A DNA stretch of 64,000 nt, from sequence record SRR22947725_670, one strand, 5' to 3'. Shown here piece after piece: positions 6,971 to 36,993 of the stretch (position 1 is its first letter; each line of letters starts with the position of its first letter). The position numbers and the translations under genes are program-made. The notes beneath the pieces were generated by a model. That model saw only the letters and a program-made list of their open reading frames with translations. It had not been told where the DNA came from and did no database searches.

Positions 6971-8398
6971 TTACCGAACGCTCACAAAAACTGAGCCTTG
7001 TCGCTCCGGCGTGGGCAGCACCATGACGCTATCGATGACGGTTTCACCTCGAAGCGAAAGACCTGCATACACCGGCTGGGTGGAGGAAAGTTCATGGCCG
7101 CCAGGCGAGACTGGCCGAGTTGCGAGCGATCGAGCCGGAACGGAAACGTCTCTGCCATCGAGTCTCACCGAGACGTCCTCCGTCCCCGGGTTGACCAGAG
7201 AAAGCCTGGCTTCGCCCCCCGCGGGCACGGCAAAGGCCGTTTCCCCGATAATCAGCGGGGCGCTTCCCACCCAGTCGGTGTCGGTTCGCTGGTCGGTCCC
7301 CACGCTGGTTCGAATCGACGCAACCACGGGGGCTGACGATTGAATAAGAAGGGCTAAATCGCCGCTGCCAAATTCATCCAGTAAGAGGTCTTTGGTCTCA
7401 CCGGCCACCAGATCCACGGTGATTATTGAGGGCTCCGCTCCTACAAGGGCAACGGTTACCTGCGCACGGGTGTCTTCATCGGGTGAAAGAAGTCTCACGA
7501 TAGCTCCAAAATCCTGATACCCATCTTTTCCGCGAATAGGCCCCGAGATTTCTTCCGGGGGCGAATAGGCCCCGGTAATCACTCTTTCCGCGCTGGGGCC
7601 TGGTTGTGAACCCATCACACTCAACCCATCTGCTTCGAGGCCGCGATAGATGGAATAGTGCAGTGCCGCAACAATCCCCACACCAGCGCTGGTCACCCGC
7701 AATACCGGTGAGCGCTCCTCGGGAGCCAATCCCGCAACAGAGAGCACTCGCTGGGACATCGGAGCAACCAAAATCCCCCGCCCCAGGGGCGCCACGATGG
7801 GGCCTGTTTGACCCCACACAGAGATGTCGACCAGGGCGGGGATATCCGAGGGATTAATCAGCGATAGCGCGGTTTGTCGACCCACTGTGGTTTCTCCCCC
7901 CACCAGCCACGCCTCACGGGAGGGAATTTGGCATTCCGAGGTGGCAAGTCCTGTGACATTCAAGTTGTTCAGGGTCTGGGAACTAGATGCGGCAAGGGAA
8001 CCACTGTCCACCGGTTGGGACACCACGACAGGGGGCTCAGCAATGAGAGCAGACTCCAAAGAAAAGCCATCCACCACACTGGTGTCAAGAATCGGTGTCA
8101 CCGTAGTGTCGGAGCCTACGATCGTCTCGGTTGCTGGCCCGTAGCCCACCGCTGAAGCGCTCTGGCTGCCAAAGGAGAGTGCCGGGCCCATACACACCAG
8201 CATCCGATCCGGCTCCGCCGGAACGACTTCAATACTGGCAATCGGCGGTTTGGGGCCTTCGAAAGCGTTGACAATCCCGACCGGTAAACCCACTGCCACG
8301 AGCCCGATGGAGAGGGCCAGAAGGAGAGTGGAGACAATCGCCGTGATGGTGCGAAGAGCGAGATTCCTGGCACCGTGTTGCGGAGTGTGATCAGACAT
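6971..8398 (-). CDS. Membrane-anchored exported protein, DUF5719-like
   Basis: N-terminal TM, beta-rich body with two LxLxNP motifs and conserved Cys; usual position downstream of whiB and the membrane GT2. Start taken at MSDH (8398). Confidence 0.75.
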   Translation of the reverse strand: MSDHTPQHGARNLALRTITAIVSTLLLALSIGLVAVGLPVGIVNAFEGPKPPIASIEVVPAEPDRMLVCMGPALSFGSQSASAVGYGPATETIVGSDTTVTPILDTSVVDGFSLESALIAEPPVVVSQPVDSGSLAASSSQTLNNLNVTGLATSECQIPSREAWLVGGETTVGRQTALSLINPSDIPALVDISVWGQTGPIVAPLGRGILVAPMSQRVLSVAGLAPEERSPVLRVTSAGVGIVAALHYSIYRGLEADGLSVMGSQPGPSAERVITGAYSPPEEISGPIRGKDGYQDFGAIVRLLSPDEDTRAQVTVALVGAEPSIITVDLVAGETKDLLLDEFGSGDLALLIQSSAPVVASIRTSVGTDQRTDTDWVGSAPLIIGETAFAVPAGGEARLSLVNPGTEDVSVRLDGRDVSVPARSLATRPVSPGGHELSSTQPVYAGLSLRGETVIDSVMVLPTPERQGSVFVSVR

Positions 8399-11282
8399 CA
8401 TCCGAGGTTTCCTCCCCGAGCGTTGGCAACGCATCATCCCTGATGTCTGAGGTAGCCCGAACCCGTCGCTCCGTGGGAATCGCCAAAATGGCCACCATGG
8501 CAACGGCGATCAGGAAAAGTTGATTCCAAAGATTGAGAGAGGTGGTTTGGTCACTGGCTTCTGGCACGGTCACCTCTGGCGCCTGCCAGAGTTGCCCCTC
8601 TCCCACCGTGCTCGCACTCACAAGCCCTGGCTGGCGTGAGAGCGAAAGCGCGGCTTCTGAGTCGCTGGCATCTTGTAAGAAGACAAACCGAATCCCGTAT
8701 TCCTGAAGCAGCGGAAATGGTGTGGCAGAGCTTGGACGAATCAGCATCGCGGAGAGACGCGCAAGGTCTTCATCTGATTGAGAGAGGCCTTGGGATGGTG
8801 CGCGCACCAGAGTTGATGCACTCGACAGGCTGTCACCAGCACCTCGATGAAGCGAGACGCGATAACCCTCGCCCGCGGGTTCAATAACGAGTGTCCCTAC
8901 CTGGGGCATCAGGGCGGACTCTGCAGCGACAAATGCTGGAACGGTGCGCGCAGCCTGAGAGGGCACGACGGGAGACTGGTGTGTCCACACCTGCATTCCC
9001 ACCAGTACCGGCGCTACCAAGCTTGCGGCCACCACCACACCCACCGTGCCCCGCGCCCACCATTGGGCTCCCCCGGACAAGAAATTGCCCACGGCATCCT
9101 GAAACACGACTCGATCGAGCAGCGAGCCCGCCCCGATCAGAACACCCAGAACCAGCAGGGACACTCCGGTGCCAGGCCACACAAAAGCGGGCGCCCCCCC
9201 CTCATACCCGGAAAACAATGCTGGCGCGCTGGTTGCTGTCACGAGACCCAGGGAAAACAAACCTGCGAAACCGGCGCTGGCCCGAGGCTTACCCAAGGCG
9301 AGCGAAGCGATTGCTGTGACCAGGAGCACACCCATCCCCGCCATGATGGCAAGGGTTGCGAGCCCGGCGCCAAGTGCTCCCGCCGAGGGCAGAGTGCTGG
9401 GAATGCCCAACATCATCTGCCACCACGGTGCCACAGAATGGCTCGTTGGGACACCGGGATCGGCAAACAAAATGCCCCAGTTTTCCCACCATGCCCCGTT
9501 TCCTTGGCTCCACCAGAAGAAGAAACGCGGTGCTGCAAGCAACAGCGAGGGGATCAACACAAAAGGCAGAACCCCGGTGAACATGGCCAGCGGCTTACCC
9601 CAGCCTCGGACGATGACCAACCCGACCACCCCAAGGATGACAGCGGGGAATAGCACCGGTGCGCTGGCCGTGACCACAACTGCGGCTAAGGAGGCTGTCC
9701 CCACCCTTTGCCACGACTGGTGGGCGCTCAAGAGCGAACCGACTAACCAGGGAAGCGCGAGGTGAGCCATGACGGCACCGATTCGGCCCTCGGAAATGGC
9801 CACAAGAAAAGTGGGGCTTAGCGCCCACAGCAACGCCGAGACTGTCGTGACAAACGACTGGCGAAAGAGGTGGGAAAAACCCCACCAGGCGATGGTGCCT
9901 GCAAGAGGAATGGCAACACCGAAAAGATAGACAACGGAGGTGGAGGGAGCCCACCAGGTGAGAGAACCCAGCAGAGCAAACAGAAGAGCTGCGGGGTCAG
10001 CGGGAAGGGCAGAGGCATCAAATCCCCATTGGGTCGGAACCAGGGACCAGGCCTGGGCCCACGCGTCCTGGATTGTCGCGGCGAGCGGAAGCGCTCCACC
10101 ACCAATAAGCGCCGTGGAACCCCACCAGGGACCGAACACGGCGCCGGCAACCGCCACCAGCGCCAAGACCAGCCACGGCAGTTGTGGCAGAGCCCGTGGC
10201 GAGGGTTCAGCCCCCTCTTGTTCTTCCCGCTTTGCCCATTTCTCCTCCCGCGCAATGGCCCGCTTTTTCGCCACATCACGAGAGCCCATGCGCAGAGCGT
10301 CAATGGCCTCCCACGAGGTAGTGCGGGCGTCATTGAGCTTTTTCCGGGCACTCAGGACGGAAGGAAGCTGAACCAGGACAGCCAGTGCAGCTGACACTTC
10401 GGAGAACATCCGGTCGGGTCGCTTCGCTACCAATTGGCCCGCAGCGCGGATGACCGACCAGGGAAGCATCGCCAACAGAAGCGGAAGAGAGGCCCACAAC
10501 GGGGTGTAGACAAGCCTTCGATACAGCCAGGCTCGGAGGGATAGGTAATCATGTGTCGCACCGGGGAGTTTCTTTCCCGCGTTCCAGTCCGCAGAACTTG
10601 ATCCCACATCCACCACAGCTCGAGGGACAACGACAATGCGGTGTCCTTGCAGTCTCACCCGCACGCAGAGATCGAGGCCCGCATCGAGCCCTGGCAACGC
10701 CTCGTCAAAACCCCCCGTCGATCGCAGGGTGTCAGCATGTATCAACATTCCGGCTTCGCCCACCGCAAGTACATCGCTAAGGCGGTCATATTGCGCCTGA
10801 TCCAGTTCACGCTCGGCCAAAGCCACTCGTTGCCCCATCGGGGTCAACGTCTCCCCTAGTTCGCGCAGAAACCCGGGGCGATCAGAAAACCGCTGCTTAG
10901 GGCCCGCCACCCGGATAGAGGGAGCTCCATCGACACTCGCCGCAAGATAACCCAGAGCAGAAGGTCTGGCGACGATGTCATCCCGAAGTAGCCACAACCA
11001 ACGGTCAGATTCGATTGTCCCTTCGCCGGGGTGAAGGTGATCCAGTGCCCCCTGTATCGCGAGAGGAAAACTAGTCCTCGAAGGTAGAACGAGCGTTTCT
11101 ACCGGAAACGGGAGGCTCTCAAAGCCCTGAGAAAACTCTTCGGCCACAGACCGATCCCCGGTGAGATCAGCGACGAGCAGGCTTTGGGGCGCAAGGGTTT
11201 GTTCCCTTAAGCCTTCCAGCGCCTGAGAAAGGTGTTCGCCACCTCTGCGAACAACCAGAACCGCATCGATGCGAGAGCGCAT
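8391..11282 (-). CDS. GT2-like glycosyltransferase fused to a large multi-TM domain
   Basis: WLWLLRDD, VAGPKQ and GGFDEAL..LDLCVRVRLQGHRI motifs, followed by many hydrophobic segments; adjacent to whiB. Confidence 0.85.
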   Translation of the reverse strand: MRSRIDAVLVVRRGGEHLSQALEGLREQTLAPQSLLVADLTGDRSVAEEFSQGFESLPFPVETLVLPSRTSFPLAIQGALDHLHPGEGTIESDRWLWLLRDDIVARPSALGYLAASVDGAPSIRVAGPKQRFSDRPGFLRELGETLTPMGQRVALAERELDQAQYDRLSDVLAVGEAGMLIHADTLRSTGGFDEALPGLDAGLDLCVRVRLQGHRIVVVPRAVVDVGSSSADWNAGKKLPGATHDYLSLRAWLYRRLVYTPLWASLPLLLAMLPWSVIRAAGQLVAKRPDRMFSEVSAALAVLVQLPSVLSARKKLNDARTTSWEAIDALRMGSRDVAKKRAIAREEKWAKREEQEGAEPSPRALPQLPWLVLALVAVAGAVFGPWWGSTALIGGGALPLAATIQDAWAQAWSLVPTQWGFDASALPADPAALLFALLGSLTWWAPSTSVVYLFGVAIPLAGTIAWWGFSHLFRQSFVTTVSALLWALSPTFLVAISEGRIGAVMAHLALPWLVGSLLSAHQSWQRVGTASLAAVVVTASAPVLFPAVILGVVGLVIVRGWGKPLAMFTGVLPFVLIPSLLLAAPRFFFWWSQGNGAWWENWGILFADPGVPTSHSVAPWWQMMLGIPSTLPSAGALGAGLATLAIMAGMGVLLVTAIASLALGKPRASAGFAGLFSLGLVTATSAPALFSGYEGGAPAFVWPGTGVSLLVLGVLIGAGSLLDRVVFQDAVGNFLSGGAQWWARGTVGVVVAASLVAPVLVGMQVWTHQSPVVPSQAARTVPAFVAAESALMPQVGTLVIEPAGEGYRVSLHRGAGDSLSSASTLVRAPSQGLSQSDEDLARLSAMLIRPSSATPFPLLQEYGIRFVFLQDASDSEAALSLSRQPGLVSASTVGEGQLWQAPEVTVPEASDQTTSLNLWNQLFLIAVAMVAILAIPTERRVRATSDIRDDALPTLGEETSDDV

Positions 11283-11291
11283 CAGAACCGG

Positions 11292-11603
11292 CTAGGCGCG
11301 TCTGCGCAGACGGCGCCGCTCACGCTCGGAGAGGCCACCCCAAATGCCAAAGCGCTCGTCGTTGGAGAGAGCGTATTCCAGACATTCGGCTTTCACCTCG
11401 CACTGGCCGCAAATCTTCTTGGCATCCCTGGTGGAGCCGCCTTTTTCAGGGAAAAACGCTTCAGGGTCCGTTTGGGCACACAGCGCATCGGCTTGCCAGG
11501 AAAGGGCGCCCTCTTCGTCTTCAACGCGTCGCGCACCGGGAACGCCCAGAGCGACGGGGTCAACGAACCAGTTATCGGGAACGGAATTCCGATACTCGCT
11601 CAC
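11292..11603 (-). CDS. whiB: WhiB (WhiB2/WhmD-type) Fe-S transcription factor
   Basis: WQADALCAQTDPEAFFPEKGGSTRDAKKICGQC..CLEYAL..FGIWGGLSERERR. GTG at 11603 has an AAAGGAG SD. Confidence 0.96.
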   Translation of the reverse strand: MSEYRNSVPDNWFVDPVALGVPGARRVEDEEGALSWQADALCAQTDPEAFFPEKGGSTRDAKKICGQCEVKAECLEYALSNDERFGIWGGLSERERRRLRRRA

Positions 11604-11646
11604 TAGGGCTCCTTTACCGCCGTCAACCGGCCTGCGACATGTGGTT

Positions 11647-11695
11647 GACACCAATTACACCGCTGTAATTCGCTCCCGTCAAGTCCGGGCGTGTC
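11647..11695 (-). promoter_or_regulatory. whiB promoter: TTGACG-17 nt-TGTAAT, with GACAC motifs and an AATTACA-N4-TGTAATT palindrome
   Basis: -35 at 11682-11677 and -10 at 11659-11654. GACAC at 11695-11691 (minus) and 11647-11651 (plus). Palindrome at 11653-11670. Confidence 0.65.
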
Positions 11696-11733: not shown

Positions 11734-12795
11734 CTAGAAAAGGGGGCCCAAAGCGTCAGCAAGAATCTGAGAGGACCTCACCCAACCGGCCCTTAACTCG
11801 ACGAGTCTCTGTGCCCGCGAGGTGATTGCTAATACTTCCTCTGGCGGGGAAGATAAGAATTTTTCAAGAGCGATAACCAGGCCGGCGGAATCCCCCACGG
11901 GGAAAGACCATCCGGTAATTCCTTCGCTGATCCATTCCGCGGACCCAGGGGTTAGCGAGCACACGACGGGGATTCCCTGCGACATTGCCTCCATGATGGT
12001 GACGGAGGTTCCATCAGTTTTAGGGGTGACCACAACAGCATCTGCGGCCTGTAAGAGGGAGGAGAAATCATCGGGACTTTGCAGCGGAACCCAGCGGACA
12101 AAATCGTCGATTCCCCGGCGTGTGATGGCCTCTTTGACCTGAGACACCCCAGAACCGGACTCCACTAAGACAGCGACCACCTGAGGGTGGGAAGAAACAA
12201 CCTCGGCAAGCGCCTCCACGAAAACCATAGGGTCATAGTGTGGCTCGAGCGACCGGGGATAGAGCACAAGGGTCTGCTCCTGCCCCACACCCACTTCCGC
12301 CCGAAGCCTGGAAGCAGTCTTCGGTGGGATATCTGAGCGGGGATTCTCTGGTCCCCAGGGGACACGGATAATCGCCGATTCCCTCATTCCCAGGGCAATC
12401 AGGGCATTCTCCGTGGCGTAATTGTCGGTAACGACAGCTTGCATCCCCTCGAGTGCTTCCGAAAGACTCGCTCTCAAAGAGGAAGAACCCGCTGCACTGA
12501 CCATGACATCGGTTGCCCACGAAATCCCCACATGGGAATAGTCCCCGCCTGAAAGGGGGATGCTGACGCTATCTAGTGGGCCAGAAATTACTACGTCTGC
12601 GCCTTCGAGGTAGTCCCGAACTTCACTCCACTCAGAAAAAGTCTTTCCGGAATCACGAACGCTGATTTCGCCCGCATCATCCAAGGCGAGAGAAAGAAGT
12701 TCATAAGAATCGCTGAGTCCAGAAAATAAGCGGTCAAACCTGGCGACATGAGAATCCGCCCTGTCGGTGACAAACACCCATCTCTTTGCTGACAC
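11734..12795 (-). CDS. GT4-like (GT-B) glycosyltransferase
   Basis: LLQAADAVVVTPKTDGTSVTIMEAMSQGIPVV; last gene of the nonulosonate operon. Confidence 0.85.
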   Translation of the reverse strand: MSAKRWVFVTDRADSHVARFDRLFSGLSDSYELLSLALDDAGEISVRDSGKTFSEWSEVRDYLEGADVVISGPLDSVSIPLSGGDYSHVGISWATDVMVSAAGSSSLRASLSEALEGMQAVVTDNYATENALIALGMRESAIIRVPWGPENPRSDIPPKTASRLRAEVGVGQEQTLVLYPRSLEPHYDPMVFVEALAEVVSSHPQVVAVLVESGSGVSQVKEAITRRGIDDFVRWVPLQSPDDFSSLLQAADAVVVTPKTDGTSVTIMEAMSQGIPVVCSLTPGSAEWISEGITGWSFPVGDSAGLVIALEKFLSSPPEEVLAITSRAQRLVELRAGWVRSSQILADALGPLF

Positions 12796-12797
12796 GG

Positions 12798-13862
12798 TCA
12801 GGACAGGTGCTCTCGGGTGACCATCTCATGGAACTCGACATCTTTGATCAAAGTTTTCCCCACCACGTCCTCAAGGTGGTCAGGAGTGATGATTCCTGGC
12901 GTTGCTGGCCGCAAGGCCACCAGATGCTCTGCAGCAATAGGGGTGCCTGCCTTCAATGGGCCTGCGAAACGGAGGCCACGTCGCTGGATGACGACCGTTT
13001 CCTTTTCATTCTCCGCCACAACTTTTAGGCCGCTTCCCAGTGCTGCCTCCAATTCGCGTGTGCGCTCGACCATCTCGCGCCAGCTCACTGGGGTCATCGA
13101 AAAGTGATGGTCGGGGCCCTCTTGGTTGATGTCGTTGGTGAAGTGCTTCTCCACCACCCGGGCCCCCAAAGCAACGGCTCCCAACACGGTCACATCGCCG
13201 TGGGTGTGATCCGAGAGACCCAACAGGGCATCCGGGTATCGTTCGCGATAGGTGTTCAACACGTTGAGATGGATGTGGTTCATGTTGTCCGAAACACCCG
13301 TGTAATTGGTGTTGCACTGCATGACGGAATACGCAACCCCGTGGCGGGCAATAGTCGCCACCGCATTATCAACTTCTTCCAGTGTTGCCGCCCCGGTAGC
13401 GAGGATCACGGGTTTCCCCTTCGAAGCAATATGGTCAACTGCTTCGAGCCAGGTGATATCGCCCGAGCCGATTTTGTAGGCGGGAACAAACTCATCGACG
13501 AAGTCAATCGCTTCGATGTCATAGGGGCTCGTGAAGAAATCGATACCGATTGCCTTCGCGTGATCGGCGAGGGGTTTGGTCCATTCCCACGGAAGAGACG
13601 CGTCTTGATACACCTCGTAGACACTTTTGCTCCAGCTGGATTGGTGGGACTGCTGACCGCCGAGTTCCCGAAACCCTTTGTCGCTGACGATATGGTCGGC
13701 TCGAAAATGCTGGAACTTTGCCGCATCAGCACCGGCAGTTGCCGCCAGCGTCATCAACTCGAGCGCGCGATCCAAGTTCCCATCGTGATTAGCGGCAATA
13801 TCCGCGATGAAATACGTGGGGTGTTCTGCTCCCAAAGTTTTTGAGCCTATTTTCATAACCAC
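12798..13862 (-). CDS. NeuB/PseI-family nonulosonate synthase with C-terminal SAF/AFP-like domain
   Basis: IADIAANHDG, KFQ, YKIGSGD, GLSDHT and EKHFT motifs. Start is GTG 13862 or ATG 13856. Confidence 0.92.
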   Translation of the reverse strand: MVMKIGSKTLGAEHPTYFIADIAANHDGNLDRALELMTLAATAGADAAKFQHFRADHIVSDKGFRELGGQQSHQSSWSKSVYEVYQDASLPWEWTKPLADHAKAIGIDFFTSPYDIEAIDFVDEFVPAYKIGSGDITWLEAVDHIASKGKPVILATGAATLEEVDNAVATIARHGVAYSVMQCNTNYTGVSDNMNHIHLNVLNTYRERYPDALLGLSDHTHGDVTVLGAVALGARVVEKHFTNDINQEGPDHHFSMTPVSWREMVERTRELEAALGSGLKVVAENEKETVVIQRRGLRFAGPLKAGTPIAAEHLVALRPATPGIITPDHLEDVVGKTLIKDVEFHEMVTREHLS

Positions 13863-14777
13863 CTATTTCTGTTCCGTGCCCATGCCACCAAAGTAATCCA
13901 TGACTGCTTTTCGCTCCGCGAGTGCTCGGGCGATTCCCTGGATAGTGGAAGGAATGGGATGACCGAGTAATTCGTGCAATGTTGTTACCGACAATCCCAG
14001 GTTATGCCCCCGGTTGCCGAGCATCGTCTGGTCCGCCAGTAAGCCCTGGTGGACAAGCGACACATCGCCTCGAAGCGCCTGTGCAACAGCAACCCCGAAG
14101 TCATATTTGGGCAGTGGCGTGCTGGAGGAGAGATGGAAAAGGCCGGCAGCTTCTTTCCTCACCGCTTCGACAAGAAGCTCGAAAAGGTCCCCCATATACA
14201 GACTCGACACGATGTAGTCGCTAAACCCCGTCATCGCCGTGCCTGTTTCTATTCCTCTCGCAAAGAAATCGAGAATGCCCCTTTCGCCGCTCTGTGACCA
14301 GCCAAAGAAGTTCGTCCGAAACACCAGGGCTTGCGAATTGGCGGCGAGAACAGCCTGCTCACCTTGAAGTTTGGTGTGCCCGTACACGCTGGGAGGCAAA
14401 GCAACATCGCCCTCCCCATAGGGCTCATTGCTTTTCCCATCAAACACCGCATCGGTGGAAAAGTGAACAAATCGGGCTGAACTTTCCCCCGCAACCGCTG
14501 CCCAGAGCGCTGGGAGCTCCATATTGAGCAGGCGCGCTTCGTCAGGTTTTTCTTCACACGCTTCATGGTTCGCCAGAGCAGCACAGTTGATGATGACATC
14601 CCAGTTACCCCCTCGAATGAGCGCAGGAACATCGTCTAGCCCTTCGATGGGTGCCACCGATGGATAAAACTCAAGGGGCTTGCGAGAAACACCTGTCACC
14701 GCCCATCCCGCGGCATCGAGGGCAAAACCGGCATAGGAACCAAGAAAGCCTGAGGCGCCTAAGACAAGCGCTTTCAC
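13863..14777 (-). CDS. RmlD-like extended SDR (NDP-4-keto-6-deoxyhexose reductase)
   Basis: GASGFLG, FSTDAVFDG, YGHTK (YxxxK) and RTNFFG motifs. Confidence 0.85.
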   Translation of the reverse strand: MKALVLGASGFLGSYAGFALDAAGWAVTGVSRKPLEFYPSVAPIEGLDDVPALIRGGNWDVIINCAALANHEACEEKPDEARLLNMELPALWAAVAGESSARFVHFSTDAVFDGKSNEPYGEGDVALPPSVYGHTKLQGEQAVLAANSQALVFRTNFFGWSQSGERGILDFFARGIETGTAMTGFSDYIVSSLYMGDLFELLVEAVRKEAAGLFHLSSSTPLPKYDFGVAVAQALRGDVSLVHQGLLADQTMLGNRGHNLGLSVTTLHELLGHPIPSTIQGIARALAERKAVMDYFGGMGTEQK

Positions 14778-15469
14778 GAGGTGTTCAGAACGAATGCTCG
14801 ATGGAGTGCTTCTGCCACAGCCCAGTCCTCTGGTTCATCCATGTCAACACTCGCCCAGTCCGGCAGAATCATCGGAATAAAGGGCTTCGCCATCATCGTC
14901 TCGCGCTCCCGCCAAATCTTTGCCGTGGCAACGTAGAACTTCCCGGCGTCAAAGAACCTTTGGGGAAGATCCTGGGTCCTGGAGAACAGCGCGGAGAGAT
15001 TTTCCAGAGTCATCTTTCCTCCCTCCGCCATAACGAGCGAGCGCTCGTGGGGCGAGCGATGACGCCCCACGCTAATCACCATGTCATCGGGATGCTTGCG
15101 AGCAAGAGAAATTGCTTGATCAATCATGGAGCTTGTGATCGGAGCCGTGGGATACAGACACATCACGAGTTGTTCATCTGACACCTTCTGCTCCGCGAGT
15201 GCATGCAGAATGACCGGAGCAGTGCCCGCTGTGTCATTGGCGAGCTCGGTCGGCCGAACAAAGGGAACTTCAGCCCCACAATCGCTGCCCACCCGAGCAA
15301 TTTCGCCTGAGTCAGTGGACACCATCACTGCATCAACACACTCTGCCTGCAGTGCTGCACGAATGGGCCACTGAATCATGGGTGCGCCATTGAAGGGCAG
15401 AAGGTTCTTGCCGGGAATCCGAGTACTACCACCCCTGGCGGGAATCACTACCTGCACGCCGGCATTCAT
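14774..15469 (-). CDS. pseF: CMP-nonulosonate synthetase (PseF/NeuA family)
   Basis: IPARGGSTRIPGKN, VSTDS, RTQDL..FFDAGKFY and VDMDEPED motifs. Start taken at ATG 15469. Confidence 0.9.
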   Translation of the reverse strand: MNAGVQVVIPARGGSTRIPGKNLLPFNGAPMIQWPIRAALQAECVDAVMVSTDSGEIARVGSDCGAEVPFVRPTELANDTAGTAPVILHALAEQKVSDEQLVMCLYPTAPITSSMIDQAISLARKHPDDMVISVGRHRSPHERSLVMAEGGKMTLENLSALFSRTQDLPQRFFDAGKFYVATAKIWRERETMMAKPFIPMILPDWASVDMDEPEDWAVAEALHRAFVLNTS

Positions 15470-15476
15470 GACTGTC

Positions 15477-16502
15477 CTAGTGGGTGGCTGATGGAGCCCG
15501 ATTGGCGGACTCATCACCGAAGTGAGAACCAAGCCAGCCTTGCAGTTCAGGCACCGTCATCCACTGGGAGTTTGCGTCGCTGGTGTAAAGGAAATCCTCC
15601 GGCACCCGTGTCCCGCCCTTCACCATGTCGGTTCCCGGAGACCAGGTGTTGATTGTCGGAAGTATCTTGAAAAAGTCTCCGTATTCGTAAGTATTGGGAG
15701 CATCTTCAGCGCCAATCATCTGTTCGTGCAGCTTTTCGCCCGGACGAATACCTACCACTGTGGTGGGTTTCCCTGGCGCCACCGCCTCAGCGATGTCGGT
15801 GATGGTCATCGAAGGAATTTTACGAACATAGATTTCCCCACCCACCATGTCTTCAAAGGCTTCCCATACCAATTCGACACCCTGCTCGAGCGTAATCATG
15901 AACCGAGTCATTCGATCATCCGTAATGGGAAGCGGGGAATCTTTGCTCGCGGCATCTCGGAAGAAAGGCAATACTGAGCCCCTGGACCCCATCACGTTGC
16001 CATACCGGACGACCGAAAAACGGGTATCTTTCGAGCCAGCGTATGCATTGCCCGCAACGAAAAGCTTGTCTGAAGCGAGCTTTGTTGCGCCATAGAGATT
16101 GATGGGGCTGCTCGCCTTGTCCGTAGAAAGAGCGACAACTTTCTTCACCCCTTTATCGATGCAGGCATCGATAAGGTTCATAGCGCCAAGAATGTTGGTC
16201 TTGACCGCCTCAAAAGGGTTGTATTCGGCGGTTGGAACAATTTTGGTTGCAGCGGCGTGAACGACATAGTCAACGCCATCCACAGCCCGATAAAGACGGT
16301 CCCGGTCACGAACATCGCCAATGAAAAACCGAACCCGCTTATCGCCCTCAAAAAGCTTTGCCATTTCCCACTGCTTCATCTCGTCGCGCGAGTAAACAAT
16401 GATGCGTTCGGGGTCGTATTTCTCTAGTGCCATCGGCACGAAGGCGTGGCCGAAGGAGCCAGTCCCTCCTGTGACAAGGATGGTGGAATTCTTCAATGCC
16501 AT
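15477..16502 (-). CDS. pseB: UDP-GlcNAc 4,6-dehydratase (inverting), PseB/FlaA1 type
   Basis: TGGTGSFG, SRDEMKQ, HAAATKIVPTAEYNPFE, LSTDKA, YGATK, RYGNVMGSRGSV and GIRPGEKLHE motifs. Confidence 0.92.
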   Translation of the reverse strand: MALKNSTILVTGGTGSFGHAFVPMALEKYDPERIIVYSRDEMKQWEMAKLFEGDKRVRFFIGDVRDRDRLYRAVDGVDYVVHAAATKIVPTAEYNPFEAVKTNILGAMNLIDACIDKGVKKVVALSTDKASSPINLYGATKLASDKLFVAGNAYAGSKDTRFSVVRYGNVMGSRGSVLPFFRDAASKDSPLPITDDRMTRFMITLEQGVELVWEAFEDMVGGEIYVRKIPSMTITDIAEAVAPGKPTTVVGIRPGEKLHEQMIGAEDAPNTYEYGDFFKILPTINTWSPGTDMVKGGTRVPEDFLYTSDANSQWMTVPELQGWLGSHFGDESANRAPSATH

Positions 16503-16555: not shown

Positions 16556-17524
16556 CTAAAGGACGGCGAGTGTCTTCCTTGCTTCCCAAGCTGACGCGAT
16601 CATTTCTTCGAGGGAATGAGTCATGGCCCACCCCAAATCGCGGGTAGCAAGGTCTCCCGAAGCAACAACGCGTGCGGGATCTCCGGCTCTTCGGGCCCCT
16701 GGGGTGGGAATGAAATCATTCCCCGTTACCGAAGCAATCGTCGACATCATGTCTGCGACTGATGTTCCCGTGCCACTGCCCAGGTTATAGGCGGGCTCAA
16801 TTGCTTTGCCCGCGGTCATCCTCTGGGCTGCTGCGACGTGAGCATGAGCGAGGTCCGCAACATGAATGTAGTCCCTGATGCAAGTCCCATCGGGAGTGTC
16901 GTAGTCCCTACCAAAAATTACCGGAGCCTCACCGCGTTCCAGTCCGGCAAACACCATCGAAAACAGGTTGTAAGGGCTGACATCGGGGAGGGAGGGGCTA
17001 GCCGACCCCACCACGTTGAAGTAGCGAAGGCTTGTATGGATGATCCCCTTGGCTACCGCTTGGTTTCGCAGCAACCATTCACCAATCACTTTCGATTCGC
17101 CATAGGGCGATGTTGGGTTGAAAGGGTGGTCCTCTTTTACCACGCCGGAGGCAGCGTTTCCATAGACCGACGAGGACGAAGAGAACACGATGTTTCTCAC
17201 GCTCGTTCGGTCCATCGCTTCCAACAAGGACATCATGGCGACAACGTTTTGCTCGTAGGTGTGGAGCGGTTTCTCGACAGAAATGCCTGCGAACTTAAAC
17301 CCGGCGATGTGGATGACACCCTCAACCGTGTGACCGCGGAGAGCCCCCTCGACTAAACCCGTATTCAGAAGGGTGCCCTCGACAACAGGCACACCATTGG
17401 GGACAAATGCTCGGACACCGGTCGAAAAATCATCGAAGACGACAACGGACTGTCCTGCTTTAACGAGCGCCTCAACAACATGCGAACCGATATATCCGGC
17501 GCCGCCGGTCACTAACCATGTCAT
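16556..17524 (-). CDS. galE: UDP-glucose 4-epimerase
   Basis: GGAGYIGSH, SPYGESK, LRYFN and DGTCIRDYIHV motifs. Confidence 0.93.
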   Translation of the reverse strand: MTWLVTGGAGYIGSHVVEALVKAGQSVVVFDDFSTGVRAFVPNGVPVVEGTLLNTGLVEGALRGHTVEGVIHIAGFKFAGISVEKPLHTYEQNVVAMMSLLEAMDRTSVRNIVFSSSSSVYGNAASGVVKEDHPFNPTSPYGESKVIGEWLLRNQAVAKGIIHTSLRYFNVVGSASPSLPDVSPYNLFSMVFAGLERGEAPVIFGRDYDTPDGTCIRDYIHVADLAHAHVAAAQRMTAGKAIEPAYNLGSGTGTSVADMMSTIASVTGNDFIPTPGARRAGDPARVVASGDLATRDLGWAMTHSLEEMIASAWEARKTLAVL

Positions 17525-17543: not shown

Positions 17544-18329
17544 TCAGGCTGTCCCCTTCTTCACGCGAGCACTCAAACGCTGTGCTGCCAGCGCAGAAGC
17601 CCAAGCAACAGGCCAATGCCACAGAGGTGACGCCCACCTTAACCAGGCCGGTAGATAACTCTTCTTGATCGCCATTGCCTCCCTGGAAGAAGCCTGTCGA
17701 TCGGCAACGGTAATCGAATCTGGGTGCCAGCGAAATCGTGCAGTGACAGCGGGGATAGGGAGAAAGGATCCCAATTTTCGTAAACGTAGGAAGAGATCGA
17801 GGTCAAGGGCGTAGGAATATCCTGGAGTAAAACCACCGGCTCGCACAATCGCATCGCGTCGGACAACCGTTCCAGGGTGCGGAATCAAATTTGGTCCCCA
17901 TGGCAAGAGAAACCGAGCAAGCTTTCCCGCACGATTGAGGGCTAAAGAATTTCCCCGGGCGTCCATATAGTCACAATGGCCGTATGCCACGACCGCGTGA
18001 GAGTCGTCATCGAGCGCCGCGACCGCACGGGAGATGCCCTCACCCACTAAGAAATCGTCGTCCCCCAACCACACGTAATAGGGATGGTCCCCGCCGGCTT
18101 TGAGCGCTGCATTTATAGCCTCCGCCATTCCCGCTCCGGGATCGTCCACGATGGTTGCACCGGAGGCGACGCCTAGCGCCCTAGCTCCTGTAGCGGAAGC
18201 GGGCGCCACCAGATACACGGTTGCCGAATGAGCACCCACCAAGGTGTCGCAAGAGGCAAGCGCTAACTCGAGGGTTTCTGTGCGATGGCCCAGGGTGGGA
18301 AGCACAATCATGACGCTGGGGGCAGACAT
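17544..18329 (-). CDS. GT2 glycosyltransferase
   Basis: YYVWLGDDD, HPGTVVRR, YALDLDLFLRL and FRWHPDS motifs. Confidence 0.85.
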   Translation of the reverse strand: MSAPSVMIVLPTLGHRTETLELALASCDTLVGAHSATVYLVAPASATGARALGVASGATIVDDPGAGMAEAINAALKAGGDHPYYVWLGDDDFLVGEGISRAVAALDDDSHAVVAYGHCDYMDARGNSLALNRAGKLARFLLPWGPNLIPHPGTVVRRDAIVRAGGFTPGYSYALDLDLFLRLRKLGSFLPIPAVTARFRWHPDSITVADRQASSREAMAIKKSYLPAWLRWASPLWHWPVAWASALAAQRLSARVKKGTA

Positions 18330-20497: not shown

Positions 20498-20566
20498 ACC
20501 TTGAGCCTAATCGGCTCAATGGCTCGAGAGTGAGCGTGGTGGGTGCCTCTCTGCCACAATAAGCGA

Positions 20567-21274
20567 GTGAGGTCCGACTCTAAGCACTCCCCTGCCGCCG
20601 GGAAAAGTATGAAGTCCGTGTGGGTGGTTGTGCCTTTGTTTAACGAGGCCGAAGTGATTTCCGGTGTCGTCAAACAATTGAAATCAGAGTTTTCCCACGT
20701 TGTTTGCGTCGACGATGGCAGCAGCGACAACAGCGCGGCCGTGGCAGAAAAAGCTGGCGCCCGGGTATTACGTCACCCCCTTAATCTTGGTCAAGGAGCT
20801 GCTCTTCAAACAGGTTTTGATTTCGTATCCAGCCAGCACGGCGCCAGCCACGTCGTCACGTTTGATGCGGACGGGCAGCACCGAGTAAAAGATGCCGTGG
20901 AGATGGTCGAACTTGCACAGCGCAAAAGAATCTCGGTGATTTATGGGTCCCGTTTTCTCGACAAGCGGACACAGCCAGGTGTCAAAAAGCGGGTTGTTTT
21001 GAAGGTAGCTGCGCTGATGACTCGGGCCATAACGGGTCTGCGCCTGACCGATGCCCATAACGGGCTTCGTGTGTTGAGCATGGAAGCCATCGGCAAAGTT
21101 CAGCTCGAGCAGAACGGCATGTCCCATGCCAGTGAGATTGTTCACCAGCTGGCCAAGTCCAAATTGTCGTGGAAGGAATACCCGGTAGAAGTTCTCTACA
21201 CCGATTACTCCAAACAAAAAGGCCAATCACTTCTCAACTCGATCAACATCCTTATCGACCTTTTAGTGAGGTAG
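20567..21274 (+). CDS. DPM-synthase-like GT2 (polyprenyl-phosphate glycosyltransferase; GacI/PpgS-like)
   Basis: VVPLFNEA, VDDGSSD, NLGQGAALQTG, TFDADGQH and TDAHNGLR motifs; followed by DUF2304. Start is GTG 20567 (CACAAT 6 nt upstream) or ATG 20609. Confidence 0.88.
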   Translation: MRSDSKHSPAAGKSMKSVWVVVPLFNEAEVISGVVKQLKSEFSHVVCVDDGSSDNSAAVAEKAGARVLRHPLNLGQGAALQTGFDFVSSQHGASHVVTFDADGQHRVKDAVEMVELAQRKRISVIYGSRFLDKRTQPGVKKRVVLKVAALMTRAITGLRLTDAHNGLRVLSMEAIGKVQLEQNGMSHASEIVHQLAKSKLSWKEYPVEVLYTDYSKQKGQSLLNSINILIDLLVR

Positions 21275-21283
21275 GAACAAAAC

Positions 21284-31974: not shown

Positions 31975-32807
31975 AAGAGTTCCGCCAATTGCTTTTCCTT
32001 CGTTGCATACATCCAGATTCCTCCTCCGAAGGCGACAACCGTCCATCCCAACGCAATCAGAACAGTGGTGAGCTCGGGCATGCGGTTGTCATAGAGGAGG
32101 TTCCTGAAGATTTCGATAAACCCTTGAACGGGGTTCAACGAATAGATATCCAAGATGGTGATGGGTGTCCCCACTAACCCGCCAAACTGGTCCGACTGTG
32201 TGGCGACTAAGTCGATGGGATACAAAATTGGCGTCAGATAGAACCAGAACTGCAAGACGATGGTGAGCAAATAGGCGAGGTCGCGGAAATAAACATTGAT
32301 GATGGAAAAAATCATCGCAAGCCCCACGGAAAAAAGTGCAAAGACGACCATGAACACGATGACCAGGGGCACCCAGGGCAAGACAAAGGCGCCGAGCAGG
32401 CTTAAGGCAAGGGCAAGCACCCCCATTTCAAGAATCCACGTGAACAGGGTTGCGTTGGTGAGAGAGAGTGGCAAAACAATGCGGGGGAAGTACACCTTCT
32501 CGATAAGCCCGGCGTTAGAGACCAGAGAATCTGTCCCAAGCGTGAGAACGCGGTTGAAGAACAGCCACGGCAGTAGCCCACACACCAGCCATAACGCGTA
32601 ATTGTTAAGCCCGCTGGGGTCCCCCACCTGGGCAGGAAGCCGGAAGATGAAAGAAAAAATAAAGGTGTAAATTACGATCGCAGCAATGGGATTAGCTAGT
32701 GACCACAGCTGGCCCAGCGCTGTCCGGCGATATTTCCCCCGAACCTCGCGATTCGTGAGATTTTGGAGAAGCTCTCGAGAGCCCCAGATTTCACCTAGGT
32801 AACTCAT
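31971..32807 (-). CDS. wzm: Polysaccharide ABC exporter permease Wzm
   Basis: [28 protein letters not shown] and FYLTPILYP motifs. Confidence 0.93.
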
Positions 32808-33667
32808 GGAGCGAGAAGGCGATCGAGATAGATTCCGTAACCACTCTTGCGCAGGGGCTCTGCGAGTGTGACCAGTTGTGTGTCATCAATCCACCCCGCG
32901 CGCCAGGCAATTTCTTCGACACAACCGATCTTGAGGCCCTGGCGATCTTCAATAACCCGGACATACTCGGAAGCTTGCATCATCGATTCAAAGGTTCCTG
33001 TGTCTAACCACGCCACCCCCCGGTCCAAAATTTGGACCTTGAGGTCACCGCGTTGCAAGAAATGGTCATTGATCGCGGTGATTTCCAACTCACCTCGTGC
33101 ACTGGGGGTAATGGTGTGGGCTGCAGCAACGACGGAGGAGTCATAAAAATAGAGCCCTGGGACAGCAAAGTTGCTTTTGGGTTTCGTGGGCTTTTCTTCA
33201 ATGGACAGCGCTTTCATGTCTCCATCAAATTCGACCACGCCATAAGCCTCGGGGTGAGACACCTGAGTGGCAAAAATGAGTCCGCCCTGAATATCCGTAT
33301 TCGCGCGGAGGGATTGCCCCAACCCTGCGCCGTGGAAAATGTTGTCCCCCAAAACGAGAGCAACCGAATCATTTCCGATGAAGTCTTCACCAATCAAAAA
33401 AGCCTGGGCAAGACCTTCTGGTTTTTCCTGAATTGCATAAGAGATGGACATCCCCAAATGTGTTCCATCGCCAAACAGGTCCTGAAACTGAGACTGATGT
33501 TCAGGGGTTGAGATGATCAACACGTCCCGAATATCCGCCATCATCAGGGTCGACAGGGGGTAGTAAATCATGGGCTTGTCATAGATGGGCATCAACTGCT
33601 TAGAGATGCCCTTAGTGATAGGCCACAATCTGGTCCCTGAACCACCGGCGAGAATGATGCCCTTCAT
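32804..33667 (-). CDS. rmlA: Glucose-1-phosphate thymidylyltransferase
   Basis: [31 protein letters not shown] and WLDTGT motifs. Confidence 0.97.
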
Positions 33668-33671
33668 ATCT

Positions 33672-34244
33672 CTAACCCTGCCACGTTGGAAGCAGCCCGG
33701 TAGCCTGTGCCTCCAAGAAACTTGGTGCCGCGGTGTCTTTTTCTGAGAGTAATAATTCGCTTGCAGCGAGAGAAAACTCTAATCCGAGATCAGCGTCCAG
33801 GGGATTGATGGCGTGTTCTGCGTGTGGTTTGTAGTGGTCTGTCACTAAATATGTCACTGTGGTGTTGTCTTCTAAAGCGAGAAAGGCGTGACCCAGCCCC
33901 ACATCGAGGACGATGGCATTTCTCTCGGATGCGGAAATAATTGCTCGATCCCAGACCCCAAAGGTGGGTGAGCCCACCCGGATATCCACGACAAAGTCCT
34001 CAATAGAACCTGAGCTACACATCACATACTTCGCCTGGCCTGGGGGGACATCCGCAAAATGAATCCCCCGCAGTGTTCCCTTAGCTGACACCGAAAGGTT
34101 TGCTTGGGCGACGGAAAACTCTAGTCCCGTCGCCTGCTTCAGAAGGTCCGCGCGAAACCACTCAACAAATTCGCCACGATCATCTCCGTGAATTTTTGGC
34201 GTCACCACAAACGAACCAGGGACTGTGAGAGGCCGGATATCCAC
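33672..34244 (-). CDS. rmlC: dTDP-4-dehydrorhamnose 3,5-epimerase
   Basis: [19 protein letters not shown] and GHAF motifs. GTG at 34244 has TAGGCT 6 nt upstream. Confidence 0.95.
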
Positions 34245-34285
34245 TCGCAAAGCCTACCAATCGGCTAAGCGCAGGGCTTTGCCCT

Positions 34286-35137: not shown

Positions 35138-36121
35138 GTGAAGCTATTTGTCACCGGGGGAGCAGGATTTATTGGCTCCAACTTCACCCGCATGGTGCTG
35201 AATAATGCTCTCCCCGGTTTAGAAAATGCGGAGGTAACGGTCTTTGACGCCCTGACCTATTCCGGCACTCTCTCTAATCTCGAATCAGTAGCAGGGTCGG
35301 AGCGATTTAGCTTTGTTGAAGGCGACATTAGGGACACCGCTGCGGTTTCAGCAGCCCTGCCTGGCCACGACGCGATTGTTCATTTCGCCGCGGAGAGCCA
35401 CGTGGATCGATCGGTCACCGACTCTCGCATTTTTGTTGACACCAATGTGTTGGGTACGCAAACTCTGCTGGATGCTGCGCTGAAGCTTGGCATCCCTCGT
35501 TTTGTTCATGTCTCAACCGATGAGGTGTACGGAAGCATCGAGGAGAGCTCGTGGGATGAAGAGGAGCCGTTGCTCCCCAATTCGCCCTACGCGGCGAGCA
35601 AGGCAGCGAGCGACCTTCTGGTCCGTAGCTACTTCGTGACCCACGATCTCAACGCCTCCATCACTCGTTGCAGCAACAACTATGGAACCCACCACTTCCC
35701 CGAAAAAGTTATTCCCCTCTTCGTCACCAACCTTCTTGATGGAATTCCTGTTCCCCTATACGGGGATGGCAAGAACATCCGCGATTGGCTTCACGTTGAT
35801 GACCACTGTCGAGGGATTGCGCTCGTTCTTCAGGGCGGCAAGGCAGGCGAGATTTATAACATCGGTGGTGGCACTGAGCTCTCCAACACTGAGCTGACGG
35901 CTCTGCTTCTCGACGCCGTCGGACGTGATGAATCTTTCATTACGAAGGTCGCTGATCGATTGGGTCATGACCGTCGCTACAGCGTCGACATTGGAAAGAT
36001 TTCCCGAGAACTTGGATACGCCCCTCAGGTTGATTTCACAGAGGGCCTTGCCGCGGTTGTCCAGTGGTATCGAGACAACCGGGTGTGGTGGGAGCCGTTG
36101 AAAGAGCGCTCCTCCCTGTGA
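35138..36121 (+). CDS. rmlB: dTDP-glucose 4,6-dehydratase
   Basis: TGGAGFIGSN, FAAESHVDRS, STDEVYGS, YAASK and HDRRY motifs; GAGGAG SD upstream. Confidence 0.97.
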   Translation: MKLFVTGGAGFIGSNFTRMVLNNALPGLENAEVTVFDALTYSGTLSNLESVAGSERFSFVEGDIRDTAAVSAALPGHDAIVHFAAESHVDRSVTDSRIFVDTNVLGTQTLLDAALKLGIPRFVHVSTDEVYGSIEESSWDEEEPLLPNSPYAASKAASDLLVRSYFVTHDLNASITRCSNNYGTHHFPEKVIPLFVTNLLDGIPVPLYGDGKNIRDWLHVDDHCRGIALVLQGGKAGEIYNIGGGTELSNTELTALLLDAVGRDESFITKVADRLGHDRRYSVDIGKISRELGYAPQVDFTEGLAAVVQWYRDNRVWWEPLKERSSL

Positions 36122-36993
36122 GTCGGATACTCGTTGTTGGGGCGGGCGGCATGCTGGGCCACGATCTCGTCTCTGGACTGGACGGACATGAGGTCACGGG
36201 GCTCACTCGTTCGGAATTAGACATCACCGATCAAGCGGCAACGATGGCAGCCCTCGAGGGCTTCGACGTAGTCGTCAATGCTGCCGCTCTCACGGCCGTC
36301 GATGATGCCCAACAAAACGAGGATTTGGCTTTTGCCATCAACGCTGATGGGGCAAGAAATTTAGCCAAGGCCTCCCGAAAAGCTGGGGCACTTCTCGTCC
36401 AGGTTTCCACGGACTATGTCTTTGATGGCGAATCAACCACTCCCTACCCGGAGGACGCAGCGCCCAACCCGCGTTCGGTCTATGGGGCTTCTAAATGGGC
36501 CGGGGAGCGGGCTGTTCTTGAGGAACATCCAGAAGGTTCCCTCATTGTTCGAACCTCATGGCTCTATGGCACACACGGCAACAGCTTCCCTCGAACAATT
36601 CTGCGCGCAGGCCTTCATAGGGAAACCCTGGATGTAGTAAACGACCAGGTTGGCCAACCGACGTGGACCAAGGATGTGGCAAGAATGATTCTCGCCCTCA
36701 TCGATGGAAGAGTGCGAACGGGCATCTTCCATGCGACAAATTCAGGTCACACCACCTGGCACGGGTTTGCCACCAAACTTTTTGATTTATCAGGCTGGGA
36801 TCTGGGTCGCGTTCATCCTGCCACCACGAAGGATTTCCCCAGACCAGCGCCTCGCCCTCCCTGGTCTGTCCTTGGTCACACGAATTGGTCTGAACACAGC
36901 CTTCCGCTCCCGCGATTGTGGGACCAGGCCCTCGAAGAAGCATGGTCGGCCGGGCTCTCAGCATTTTCTCTACCTGGAGAGAAAAACCTATGA
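36118..36993 (+). CDS. rmlD: dTDP-4-dehydrorhamnose reductase
   Basis: GAGGMLG, STDYVFDG, YGASK, DQVGQPT and APRP motifs; GTGA overlap with rmlB. Confidence 0.95.
   Translation: MSRILVVGAGGMLGHDLVSGLDGHEVTGLTRSELDITDQAATMAALEGFDVVVNAAALTAVDDAQQNEDLAFAINADGARNLAKASRKAGALLVQVSTDYVFDGESTTPYPEDAAPNPRSVYGASKWAGERAVLEEHPEGSLIVRTSWLYGTHGNSFPRTILRAGLHRETLDVVNDQVGQPTWTKDVARMILALIDGRVRTGIFHATNSGHTTWHGFATKLFDLSGWDLGRVHPATTKDFPRPAPRPPWSVLGHTNWSEHSLPLPRLWDQALEEAWSAGLSAFSLPGEKNL

Follow-up and report, generated by a model that had tools for sequence, protein, structure and literature searches.

The DNA analysed here, a stretch of 64,000 nucleotides (nt) from sequence record SRR22947725_670 that is referred to as the window and to which all coordinates apply, carries on its minus strand, at 11734..16502, a compact five-gene operon for the synthesis of a nonulosonic acid. 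The operon probably encodes a route to a cytidine monophosphate (CMP)-activated nonulosonate that is N-acylated once, at C5, and hydroxylated at C7, namely a 5-acetamido-3,5,9-trideoxy-non-2-ulosonate (C11H19NO8), a reading that is given a probability of roughly 0.65 on the basis of gene content, phylogeny and synteny. Judged by the same comparisons, the conserved and mobile five-gene module to which the operon belongs most likely constitutes a separate pathway for 7-hydroxy, mono-N-acyl nonulosonates. Nonulosonic acids are capping sugars of bacterial surfaces that influence how phages and immune lectins recognise the cell and how biofilm matrices behave, and genome-based prediction now sorts their synthases into neuraminic (Neu), legionaminic (Leg) and pseudaminic (Pse) types. 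A module for 7-hydroxy sugars, if correctly read, would add one more class to these three and would account for NeuB homologues that belong to none of them. The five genes, in order of transcription, are as follows.

15477..16502, minus strand: PseB, inverting UDP-GlcNAc 4,6-dehydratase (UDP, uridine diphosphate), 341 aa; TIGR03589 517.7 bits (cut-off 407.75), PF02719 321.7 bits.
14774..15532, minus strand: PseF-like CMP-nonulosonate cytidylyltransferase; TIGR03584 203.3 bits (just under the cut-off of 205.7), PF02348 (CTP_transf_3) 94 bits.
13863..14777, minus strand: RmlD-like extended short-chain dehydrogenase/reductase (SDR), 304 aa, the proposed UDP-2-acetamido-2,6-dideoxy-L-arabino-hexos-4-ulose 4-reductase; TIGR01214 133.5 bits (cut-off 224.05), PF04321 (RmlD_sub_bind) 138.3 bits.
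12798..13862, minus strand: NeuB-family nonulosonate synthase of a distinct clade, 354 aa; PF03102 (NeuB) 242 bits, SAF 26.9 bits.
11734..12795, minus strand: GT-B protein of glycosyltransferase family 4 (GT4), 353 aa, a candidate UDP-sugar hydrolase, or a transferase of 6-deoxy-N-acetylhexosamine (6-deoxy-HexNAc) or nonulosonate; PF00534 (Glycos_transf_1) 85.1 bits.

In the list of open reading frames (ORFs), these five frames abut one another between 16502 and 11734, the cytidylyltransferase and SDR genes overlapping by 4 nt, the SDR and synthase genes meeting with a 0-nt gap, and the synthase and GT4 genes being separated by 2 nt. The packed order pseB-pseF-RmlD-like SDR-NeuB/PseI-like synthase-GT4, read from the letters in the original prediction, was confirmed by the ORFs and by NCBIfam and Pfam, the Pfam families of all five proteins agreeing with the NCBIfam assignments (Polysacc_synt_2 in the case of PseB). 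The dehydratase is a member of the PseB family, scoring well above its cut-off, and reaches 259 bits against the FnlA model of NCBIfam (cut-off 730). As listed, the cytidylyltransferase frame begins with a TTG at 15532; the in-frame ATG at 15469, which lies 8 nt past the PseB stop and gives a protein of 231 aa, is the likelier start. In the longer version of the protein, the profile match starts at residue 29. The third protein has the intact cofactor motif and S/T-Y-K triad of an extended SDR: an alignment of 12 sequences shows no variation at GxxGxxG (G7, G10, G13), S107-T108-D109, Y132 or K136. It is RmlD-like rather than RmlD, its score lying below that of the RmlD equivalog and its gene context not being rmlABC, and a look-up in a protein atlas returned generic RmlD-like clusters only. 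The synthase belongs to the NeuB superfamily by both of its domains and its metal-binding and catalytic residues, and stays under both equivalog cut-offs (NeuB, TIGR03569, 268.4 against 399.65; PseI, TIGR03586, 249.8 against 340.25). The last protein is a GT4 member by its GT-B fold and its Glycos_transf_1 C-terminal domain. A scan of the operon for promoters and terminators gave nothing above chance.

In the proposed pathway, PseB would convert UDP-GlcNAc into UDP-2-acetamido-2,6-dideoxy-beta-L-arabino-hexos-4-ulose, the formation of which by PseB is established chemistry. The RmlD-like SDR would then use NAD(P)H to reduce the 4-keto group, yielding UDP-6-deoxy-L-AltNAc or UDP-6-deoxy-L-IdoNAc; RmlD and the RmlD-like WbvR are known to reduce 4-keto-6-deoxy-L-hexose nucleotides. 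As NeuB-family enzymes need a free reducing sugar, UDP would next have to be removed, for which the adjacent GT4 is a candidate; the original outline of the pathway overlooked this step, while its ketoreductase core is supported. The divergent synthase would condense the free sugar with phosphoenolpyruvate, and the PseF-like enzyme, judged by its family, would use CTP to form the CMP sugar, which may then enter the cell-wall glycopolymer encoded by the rest of the window. By the rules of nomenclature, an L-altro precursor would lead to the L-glycero-L-manno sugar, the 7-hydroxy analogue of Pse, or, through attack on the opposite face at C4, to the L-glycero-L-gluco sugar, which is the fusaminic one. 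The choice between altro and ido and the C4 configuration of the product ('fusaminic' or 7-hydroxy-Pse) are beyond what sequence can decide.

The replacement of PseC and PseH by reduction of the 4-keto group, which was the central proposal of the original prediction, is supported by the clade of the synthase, by synteny, by six fusion clusters and by the absence of PseG and PseC from carrier genomes. Within the window itself, a Pfam scan covered 53 ORFs (11 + 42), which were the non-overlapping frames of at least 150 aa, leaving aside overlapping alternative frames and the end-cut ORF at 63490-63999. No DegT (PF01041) aminotransferase was found among these 53, nor did tblastn with two DegT-containing queries at E<=1e-3 give a match anywhere in the window, and no GNAT, hexapeptide, Glyco_tran_28_C or PseG-like protein was present among the scanned ORFs of at least 150 aa. 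The claimed lack of an aminotransferase and of PseG therefore stands for the window as scanned.

The source is, by sequence likeness, a Pontimonas-like member of the Microbacteriaceae, a marine actinobacterium, the synthase of locus L001 being 97% identical to that of the window. The missing Pse steps were sought in 13 module-carrying relatives, none of them the genome of the window organism. PseG (TIGR03590) was found in 0 of the 13 and PseC over its cut-off (TIGR03588) in 0 of the 10 searched for it, as against five of five for each enzyme in control genomes with a true PseI, where PseG passed its cut-off in four and stood next to PseI in each, and PseC passed its cut-off in all. A NeuC-type enzyme over the cut-off was limited to three genomes (G005, G512 and G523), each time inside a separate Leg cluster. 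Of the eight module genomes searched for DegT (PF01041), three contain no real member: the complete 2.6-Mb actinobacterial chromosome G001, with a partial best match of 32 bits; G004, with a best match of 23 bits; and G465, a single contig of 3.7 Mb without a match at E<=1e-10. G001 also yielded no NeuC- or WecB-like gene, and neither G001 nor G465 has a PseG or a NeuC that passes the cut-off.

The arrangement of the genes in these relatives points in the same direction. G465 carries the bare set of PseB, SDR, synthase, GT4 and cytidylyltransferase, and G523 carries the same five genes immediately downstream of a complete Leg cluster (L096 3436-10244), which comes with a dehydratase, an aminotransferase, a hydrolysing epimerase, a synthase and a cytidylyltransferase of its own; the module therefore appears to be a pathway of its own rather than a fragment of the Pse or Leg route. 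In G512, whose synthase is 97% identical to that of the window, the sole DegT gene encodes a LegC homologue and lies on a different contig (L095, contig C61), within a LegB-LegC-LegI-LegG-PtmE-WbuX-WbuZ-HisH cluster, and the same arrangement is found in G005 (L081, contig C60, 1-12073). These Leg clusters of the Pontimonas group encode LegC (486 bits), NeuB/LegI (416 bits), NeuC (419 bits), a PtmE-like nucleotidyltransferase, the WbuX/WbuZ/HisH amidotransferase proteins and a cytidylyltransferase. Because G512 and G005 carry them, the window organism may also make legionaminic acid with an acetimidoyl group, but such a cluster would not supply PseC, PseH or PseG. The Leg cluster of the two closest relatives, with its own aminotransferase, is a different set from the pseC/pseG/pseH genes that would have spoken against the original prediction.

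Phylogeny sets the synthase apart. Relatives were collected by scanning one genome per species, which gave 392 stretches, and synteny was analysed for the best 80 (47-97% identity). A maximum-likelihood tree (LG+G4, with SH-aLRT support only) was built from 95 synthase segments. It includes the window, 84 segments from the 80 loci, nine alphaproteobacterial PseI proteins that pass the cut-off, two PseI-like proteins below it, and one LegI as root; one further cut-off-passing PseI locus (L092) was left out, its match being shorter than 250 aa. All 80 clade members, the window's included, form one group (SH-aLRT 100, stem length 0.87), the PseI proteins form another (support 100), and the two are joined as sisters with a support of 92, a relation less certain than the monophyly of the clade, as the long stems of both groups meet there. 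The sister relation to PseI fits a Pse-like, L-configured 6-deoxy substrate. The LegI of G005, which passes the TIGR03569 cut-off with 416.1 bits, roots outside the clade. Eighteen alignment columns set the clade apart from PseI. At the position of Glu25 in Neisseria NeuB (NmNeuB), 79 of 80 clade members have Asp, as against Glu in nine of nine PseI proteins and in LegI; in the window synthase this residue is D21, and D135 stands at E134. H219, E238 and H240 align to NmNeuB H215, E234 and H236, so that the metal ligands H219 and H240 are kept. The Asp-for-Glu exchange may bear on the configuration of the product, and is offered as a lead, not as evidence.

The genes around these synthases recur as a set across distant lineages. 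The 80 loci come from Actinomycetota, Chloroflexota, Acidobacteriota, Verrucomicrobiota, Planctomycetota, Bacteroidota, several classes of Pseudomonadota (including Pelagibacteraceae), Bacillota, candidate phyla and one archaeon. Synteny was scored by tblastn (E<=1e-6) with the window proteins and a few locus proteins, the counts being limited to loci with enough flank; in high-GC loci, genes were called with a GC3 filter. Of 70 loci, 52 have the SDR gene immediately before the synthase gene and 12 have it elsewhere in the locus, and PseB is present in 41 of 44, with a CTP_transf_3 cytidylyltransferase usually near the module. Immediately 3' of the synthase stands a GT4 gene in 37 of 69 loci and a short family 2 glycosyltransferase (GT2) gene (210-257 aa) in 18, together 55; of the 14 loci without a glycosyltransferase directly after the synthase, three carry one 1-2 kb further on. 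In Actinomycetota and Chloroflexota the GT4 always adjoins the clade synthase, and the type of downstream glycosyltransferase largely tracks the synthase tree. In 11 loci the families were confirmed by NCBIfam and Pfam scans. As to the check proposed at the outset, whether this clade occurs with the SDR and without an aminotransferase, the SDR association holds, DegT is absent from three of eight genomes, and DegT-type domains occur near some loci, as discussed below. The distribution of the module is sporadic; the clade synthase occurs in four of 151 sampled Microbacteriaceae, G005 among them, and in no further genome among 300 sampled Actinomycetota.

Several loci carry additional genes or depart from this layout. 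In L037, a WbuX-type amidotransferase and a sugar O-methyltransferase lie beside the module, and in L067 a PIG-L deacetylase and a formyltransferase do; by their predicted functions, these accessory genes fit modification of a single amino group. Four Bacillota loci (L050, L059, L061 and L063) show a variant without PseB, in which a 778-aa cytidylyltransferase-DegT fusion is followed by the SDR, the synthase and a GNAT protein, and which continues with a WbcJ-like UDP-4-keto-sugar reductase (364 bits, cut-off 500) and a WecB-type 2-epimerase. In Thiomonas sp. FB-6 (L054 5410-11727), the module adjoins flgK/flgL and has a thiamine-diphosphate enzyme resembling acetolactate synthase between PseB and the SDR, which suggests flagellin glycosylation with a further modified sugar. 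The genomes of this isolate and of Nocardioides nematodiphilus R-N-C8, the isolate behind L018, contain DegT-type genes. In two actinobacterial loci (L030 7962-8666 and L023 362-1039), a 234-aa protein with a weak match to the sialyltransferase (GT29) motif is encoded directly upstream of the SDR, and is by this match a candidate nonulosonate transferase.

Gene fusions tie the components more closely together. They were sought in a search limited to long proteins, in which six clusters (P0001-P0006, 649-674 aa) were found to join an RmlD-like SDR (residues 1-285) to a NeuB domain (about residues 350-597); these are 52-57% identical to the window synthase, and one comes from a nanoarchaeal metagenome-assembled genome. 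Two further proteins, each a single member, place a GT4 domain after NeuB (P0007) and a short GT2 after NeuB-SAF (P0020). Domain order in the fusions is the gene order of the operons, and the single-member cases could for this reason be read-through or gene-calling artefacts, an explanation that is less easily applied to the six reductase-synthase clusters.

The fusions also bear on the possibility that PseB, SDR and GT4 form a separate branch, which makes UDP-6-deoxy-L-HexNAc (6-deoxy-L-AltNAc, L-RhaNAc or similar) and transfers it into the wall polymer, while the synthase and cytidylyltransferase use an unrelated precursor. RmlD-like reductases that follow a PseB/FnlA-type dehydratase are known from UDP-L-RhaNAc synthesis (WbvB/WbvR), the predicted GT4 model resembles the UDP-HexNAc-using transferases BshA and MshA, and the short GT2 keeps its DxD motif and a candidate base and is fused to a Wzy_C-like domain in P0018, all of which would suit such a branch. 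We nevertheless regard it as quite unlikely: the SDR-synthase, NeuB-GT4 and NeuB-GT2 fusions link every component to the synthase, the five families recur as a group in different phyla, and G001 and G465 have no cut-off-passing NeuC or PseG that could supply another free HexNAc.

Reduction of the PseB product for use by the synthase remains the favoured reading, and the glycosyltransferase that follows the synthase is then the candidate for the release of UDP. The window GT4 is predicted with a pLDDT of 93 as an ordinary GT4 with both domains intact, its best PDB matches being HepE, BshA and MshA (TM 0.81 to HepE 4xso), and PseG is not among its structure matches at ranks 1-50; the modelled fold does not separate hydrolase from transferase. 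When it is compared with G001, G002 and G003, the top match in each is the GT4 next to the synthase, at 96, 91 and 88 bits against 36, 31 and 39 for the next; because the synthase-adjacent protein beats any paralogue by 50-60 bits, the GT4 can be taken as an orthologous family tied to the module. In all 37 synthase-adjacent GT4 members, D261 of D261-x7-E269, which stands at the site of the usual E-x7-E motif, is invariant, as are H16 and R19 in the N-terminal domain. The short GT2 keeps a DxD motif and a candidate catalytic Asp. It is also found fused to membrane or other glycan-assembly domains (P0018 and P0019), including a weak Wzy_C-like membrane domain in P0018 (26.4 bits, under the cut-off; 3 members), and to a weak Epimerase_2-like domain.

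That the GT4 acts as a UDP-sugar hydrolase is judged just short of an even bet. The competing view, that it attaches the finished nonulosonate or a 6-deoxy-HexNAc to an acceptor and that UDP is released by an unrecognised or unspecific enzyme, is also a serious possibility, to which a somewhat less than even chance is given. An ordinary GT4 fold with both domains intact suits a transferase, no GT4 is known to us as a dedicated hydrolase, no paper was found that links GT4 with PseG-type hydrolysis, and the O-antigen of Fusobacterium nucleatum contains both sugars, according to the title of Vinogradov 2017. Set against this, the module holds no other conserved candidate for the required hydrolase, L030 and L023 have the extra GT29-like candidate sialyltransferase beside their GT4, and both GT4 and short GT2 occur fused to the synthase. 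Moreover, the position behind the synthase is taken by a GT-B protein in some loci and by a GT-A protein in others, in keeping with one simple reaction on the UDP-sugar that both could perform. To our knowledge, each of the three known nonulosonate routes relies on a GT-B-like NDP-sugar hydrolase (NDP, nucleoside diphosphate), an enzyme of glycosyltransferase fold.

Several observations weigh against a 7-hydroxy, mono-N-acyl product. The module contains no recognised UDP-releasing enzyme, and the conserved glycosyltransferase after the synthase, the sole remaining candidate, is one with mixed evidence, the GT4 looking like an ordinary retaining enzyme and the GT2 having normal transferase motifs. 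Six of the 70 loci lack the SDR, and the synteny counts come from loci picked by likeness to the window synthase and from few queries. A DegT-type domain lies within 10 kb of the synthase in 15 of 80 loci, for which reason some clade members may make aminated products. The closest relatives checked, G512 and G005, each have a LegC in a Leg cluster, and, the PseC and PseG searches having been made in relatives, an aminotransferase may lie elsewhere in the genome of the window organism.

Some of these points would also suit an operon whose product is ordinary pseudaminic acid, or else a different 5,7-diamino nonulosonate, with aminotransferase, acetyltransferase and hydrolase encoded elsewhere or borrowed from a Leg cluster and the SDR serving another sugar. 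PseB is present, PseF scores near its cut-off, the synthase clade is sister to PseI, and the Pontimonas relatives G005 and G512 do encode LegC and a NeuC-type hydrolase, in a cluster apart from the module, besides the DegT domains near 15 of the loci and the restriction of the genome searches to relatives. This explanation is nonetheless improbable, as the module genomes searched lack PseG and the PseC equivalog, both of which are present in all five true-PseI genomes; three of them have no DegT at all; the synthase lies under the PseI cut-off; six clusters are SDR-synthase fusions; and each Leg cluster is complete in itself, down to its synthase and cytidylyltransferase.

Among characterised pathways, the module, read as a 7-hydroxy route, is most like that of pseudaminic acid with the middle steps exchanged. 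Like the Pse pathway (PseB, C, H, G, I, F), it begins with a true PseB and has a synthase sister to PseI and a PseF-like cytidylyltransferase as its final enzymes, and its expected precursor keeps the frame of an L-configured 6-deoxy-HexNAc. It differs in having an RmlD-like reductase after PseB instead of PseC, PseG and probably PseH, in the expected hydroxyl rather than acetamido group at C7, and in failing membership on PseC, PseG and PseI, the last by score and by its separate clade. The Leg pathway (LegB, C, H, G, I, F) is likewise a nonulosonate route and is complete in the nearest relatives, lying beside the module in G523; however, the dehydratase, aminotransferase, NeuC-type hydrolysing epimerase, synthase (416 bits) and cytidylyltransferase that it employs are enzymes of its own, none of which is present in the window. 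The routes to UDP-L-RhaNAc and UDP-L-QuiNAc (WbvB, WbvR, WbvD) and to UDP-L-FucNAc (FnlA/B/C) employ a PseB/FnlA-type dehydratase and then a 4-ketoreductase acting on UDP-2-acetamido-2,6-dideoxy-L-hexos-4-ulose, WbvR being RmlD-like. Their first two steps are those proposed for the module, but they end in a UDP-sugar that transferases use directly, whereas the reductase of the module is coupled or fused to a nonulosonate synthase, and its dehydratase scores as PseB rather than FnlA.

The predicted product has the skeleton of fusaminic acid (Fus) from F. nucleatum 25586. The title of Vinogradov 2017, as given in the reference list of PMC12940168, names a sugar of this skeleton together with 6-deoxy-L-AltNAc in the O-antigen of that strain, so that the predicted free-sugar precursor would occur in the same polymer, as far as a title tells. 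A WbuX-type amidotransferase such as that of L037 could make an acetimidoyl form. Fusaminic acid is known from its chemical structure. Fus is described in a diamino and a trideoxy form (PMC7371886), synthases are sorted into three lifestyle groups only (PMC8208679), and lipopolysaccharide with fusaminic acid is discussed as a ligand of Siglec-7 (PMC12940168). No description of a gene assignment for fusaminic acid or of a PseB/RmlD-like/NeuB route was found in a search that lay mostly outside subscription journals, among them the original Carbohydrate Research papers, and a prior description is possible.

A wider claim can be advanced tentatively, with the odds leaning against it: that the self-contained five-gene module constitutes a fourth general nonulosonate route beside Neu, Leg and Pse and represents the missing genetics of fusaminic acid. 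In such a route, an RmlD-like 4-ketoreductase would take over from transamination and acetylation, with 7-hydroxy, mono-N-acyl, 9-deoxy sugars of fusaminic type as the products; a separate synthase clade with Asp at NmNeuB Glu25 would perform the condensation; a GT4 or minimal GT2 would replace PseG/NeuC as UDP-sugar hydrolase; and transfer would have spread the module through Chloroflexota, Actinomycetota, Acidobacteriota, Pelagibacteraceae and other environmental lineages. If true, this would suggest which genes make fusaminic acid and would hint at UDP-sugar hydrolases of a new kind. Since all five enzymes are small, soluble proteins, the claim is open to direct testing in vitro. As a separate observation on the synthase family, two 793-aa fusions (P0008 and P0010), 46-49% identical to the window synthase, join NeuB-SAF to a class-III aminotransferase (PF00202), a type that we do not know from nonulosonate pathways.

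The surroundings of the operon in the window include the following genes.

16556..17524, minus strand: GalE-type UDP-hexose 4-epimerase, upstream of PseB in the same orientation; TIGR01179 305.8 bits (cut-off 262.3).
17544..18329, minus strand: 261-aa protein, first gene of the same-strand run, with a faint GT-A/nucleotidyltransferase likeness; PF12804 20.4 bits and PF00535 17.8 bits, both under cut-off.
32804..34250: rmlA and rmlC, by Pfam; the full rml set spans 32.8-37 kb.
36064..36993, plus strand: true rmlD of the dTDP-rhamnose set, beside rmlB; RmlD_sub_bind (PF04321) 302.5 bits.

The separate true rmlD expected from the original prediction is thus in place, together with rmlA, rmlB and rmlC, and shows that rhamnose synthesis does not need the operon SDR. 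The SDR shares the fold and catalytic motifs of RmlD, which itself reduces a 4-keto-6-deoxy-L-hexose nucleotide, but is 26% identical to the rmlD product of the window, stays below the cut-off of the RmlD model and lies in a nonulosonate operon, not in rmlABC. The remaining window is a cell-wall glycopolymer region with rmlA/B/C/D, gmd, fcl, manA, phosphomannomutases, many glycosyltransferases and a Wzm/Wzt-type ABC exporter, flanked by genes of mtrA/mtrB/lpqB type. GalE adjoins PseB in nine of 11 Pontimonas-group loci, the other two having no such flank; outside this group, no GalE was found near the module in L012-L080 (E<=1e-10) except for one weak match of 25% in L043. Homologues of the 261-aa protein are confined to Pontimonas-group loci. 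It was considered as a nonulosonate transferase and rejected, being unrelated to the GT29-like protein of L030.

On the other side of the operon, a gene for a WhiB-family regulator (11292-11654, minus strand) lies directly downstream of the GT4 gene on the same strand after a gap of 79 nt, followed at 6971-11282 (minus strand) by a 963-aa protein with an N-terminal GT2-like domain only and then a DUF5719 protein. At 20543-21637 (plus strand), a 243-aa GT2 precedes a DUF2304 membrane protein, and is 29% identical to the short GT2 found after the synthase in proteobacterial loci. Finally, a 505-aa ORF at 48123-49640 (plus strand), whose sole family signal is a very weak one to Capsule_synth (KpsC/KpsS-type, E 0.09), is a possible ulosonic-acid transferase for the product of the operon.

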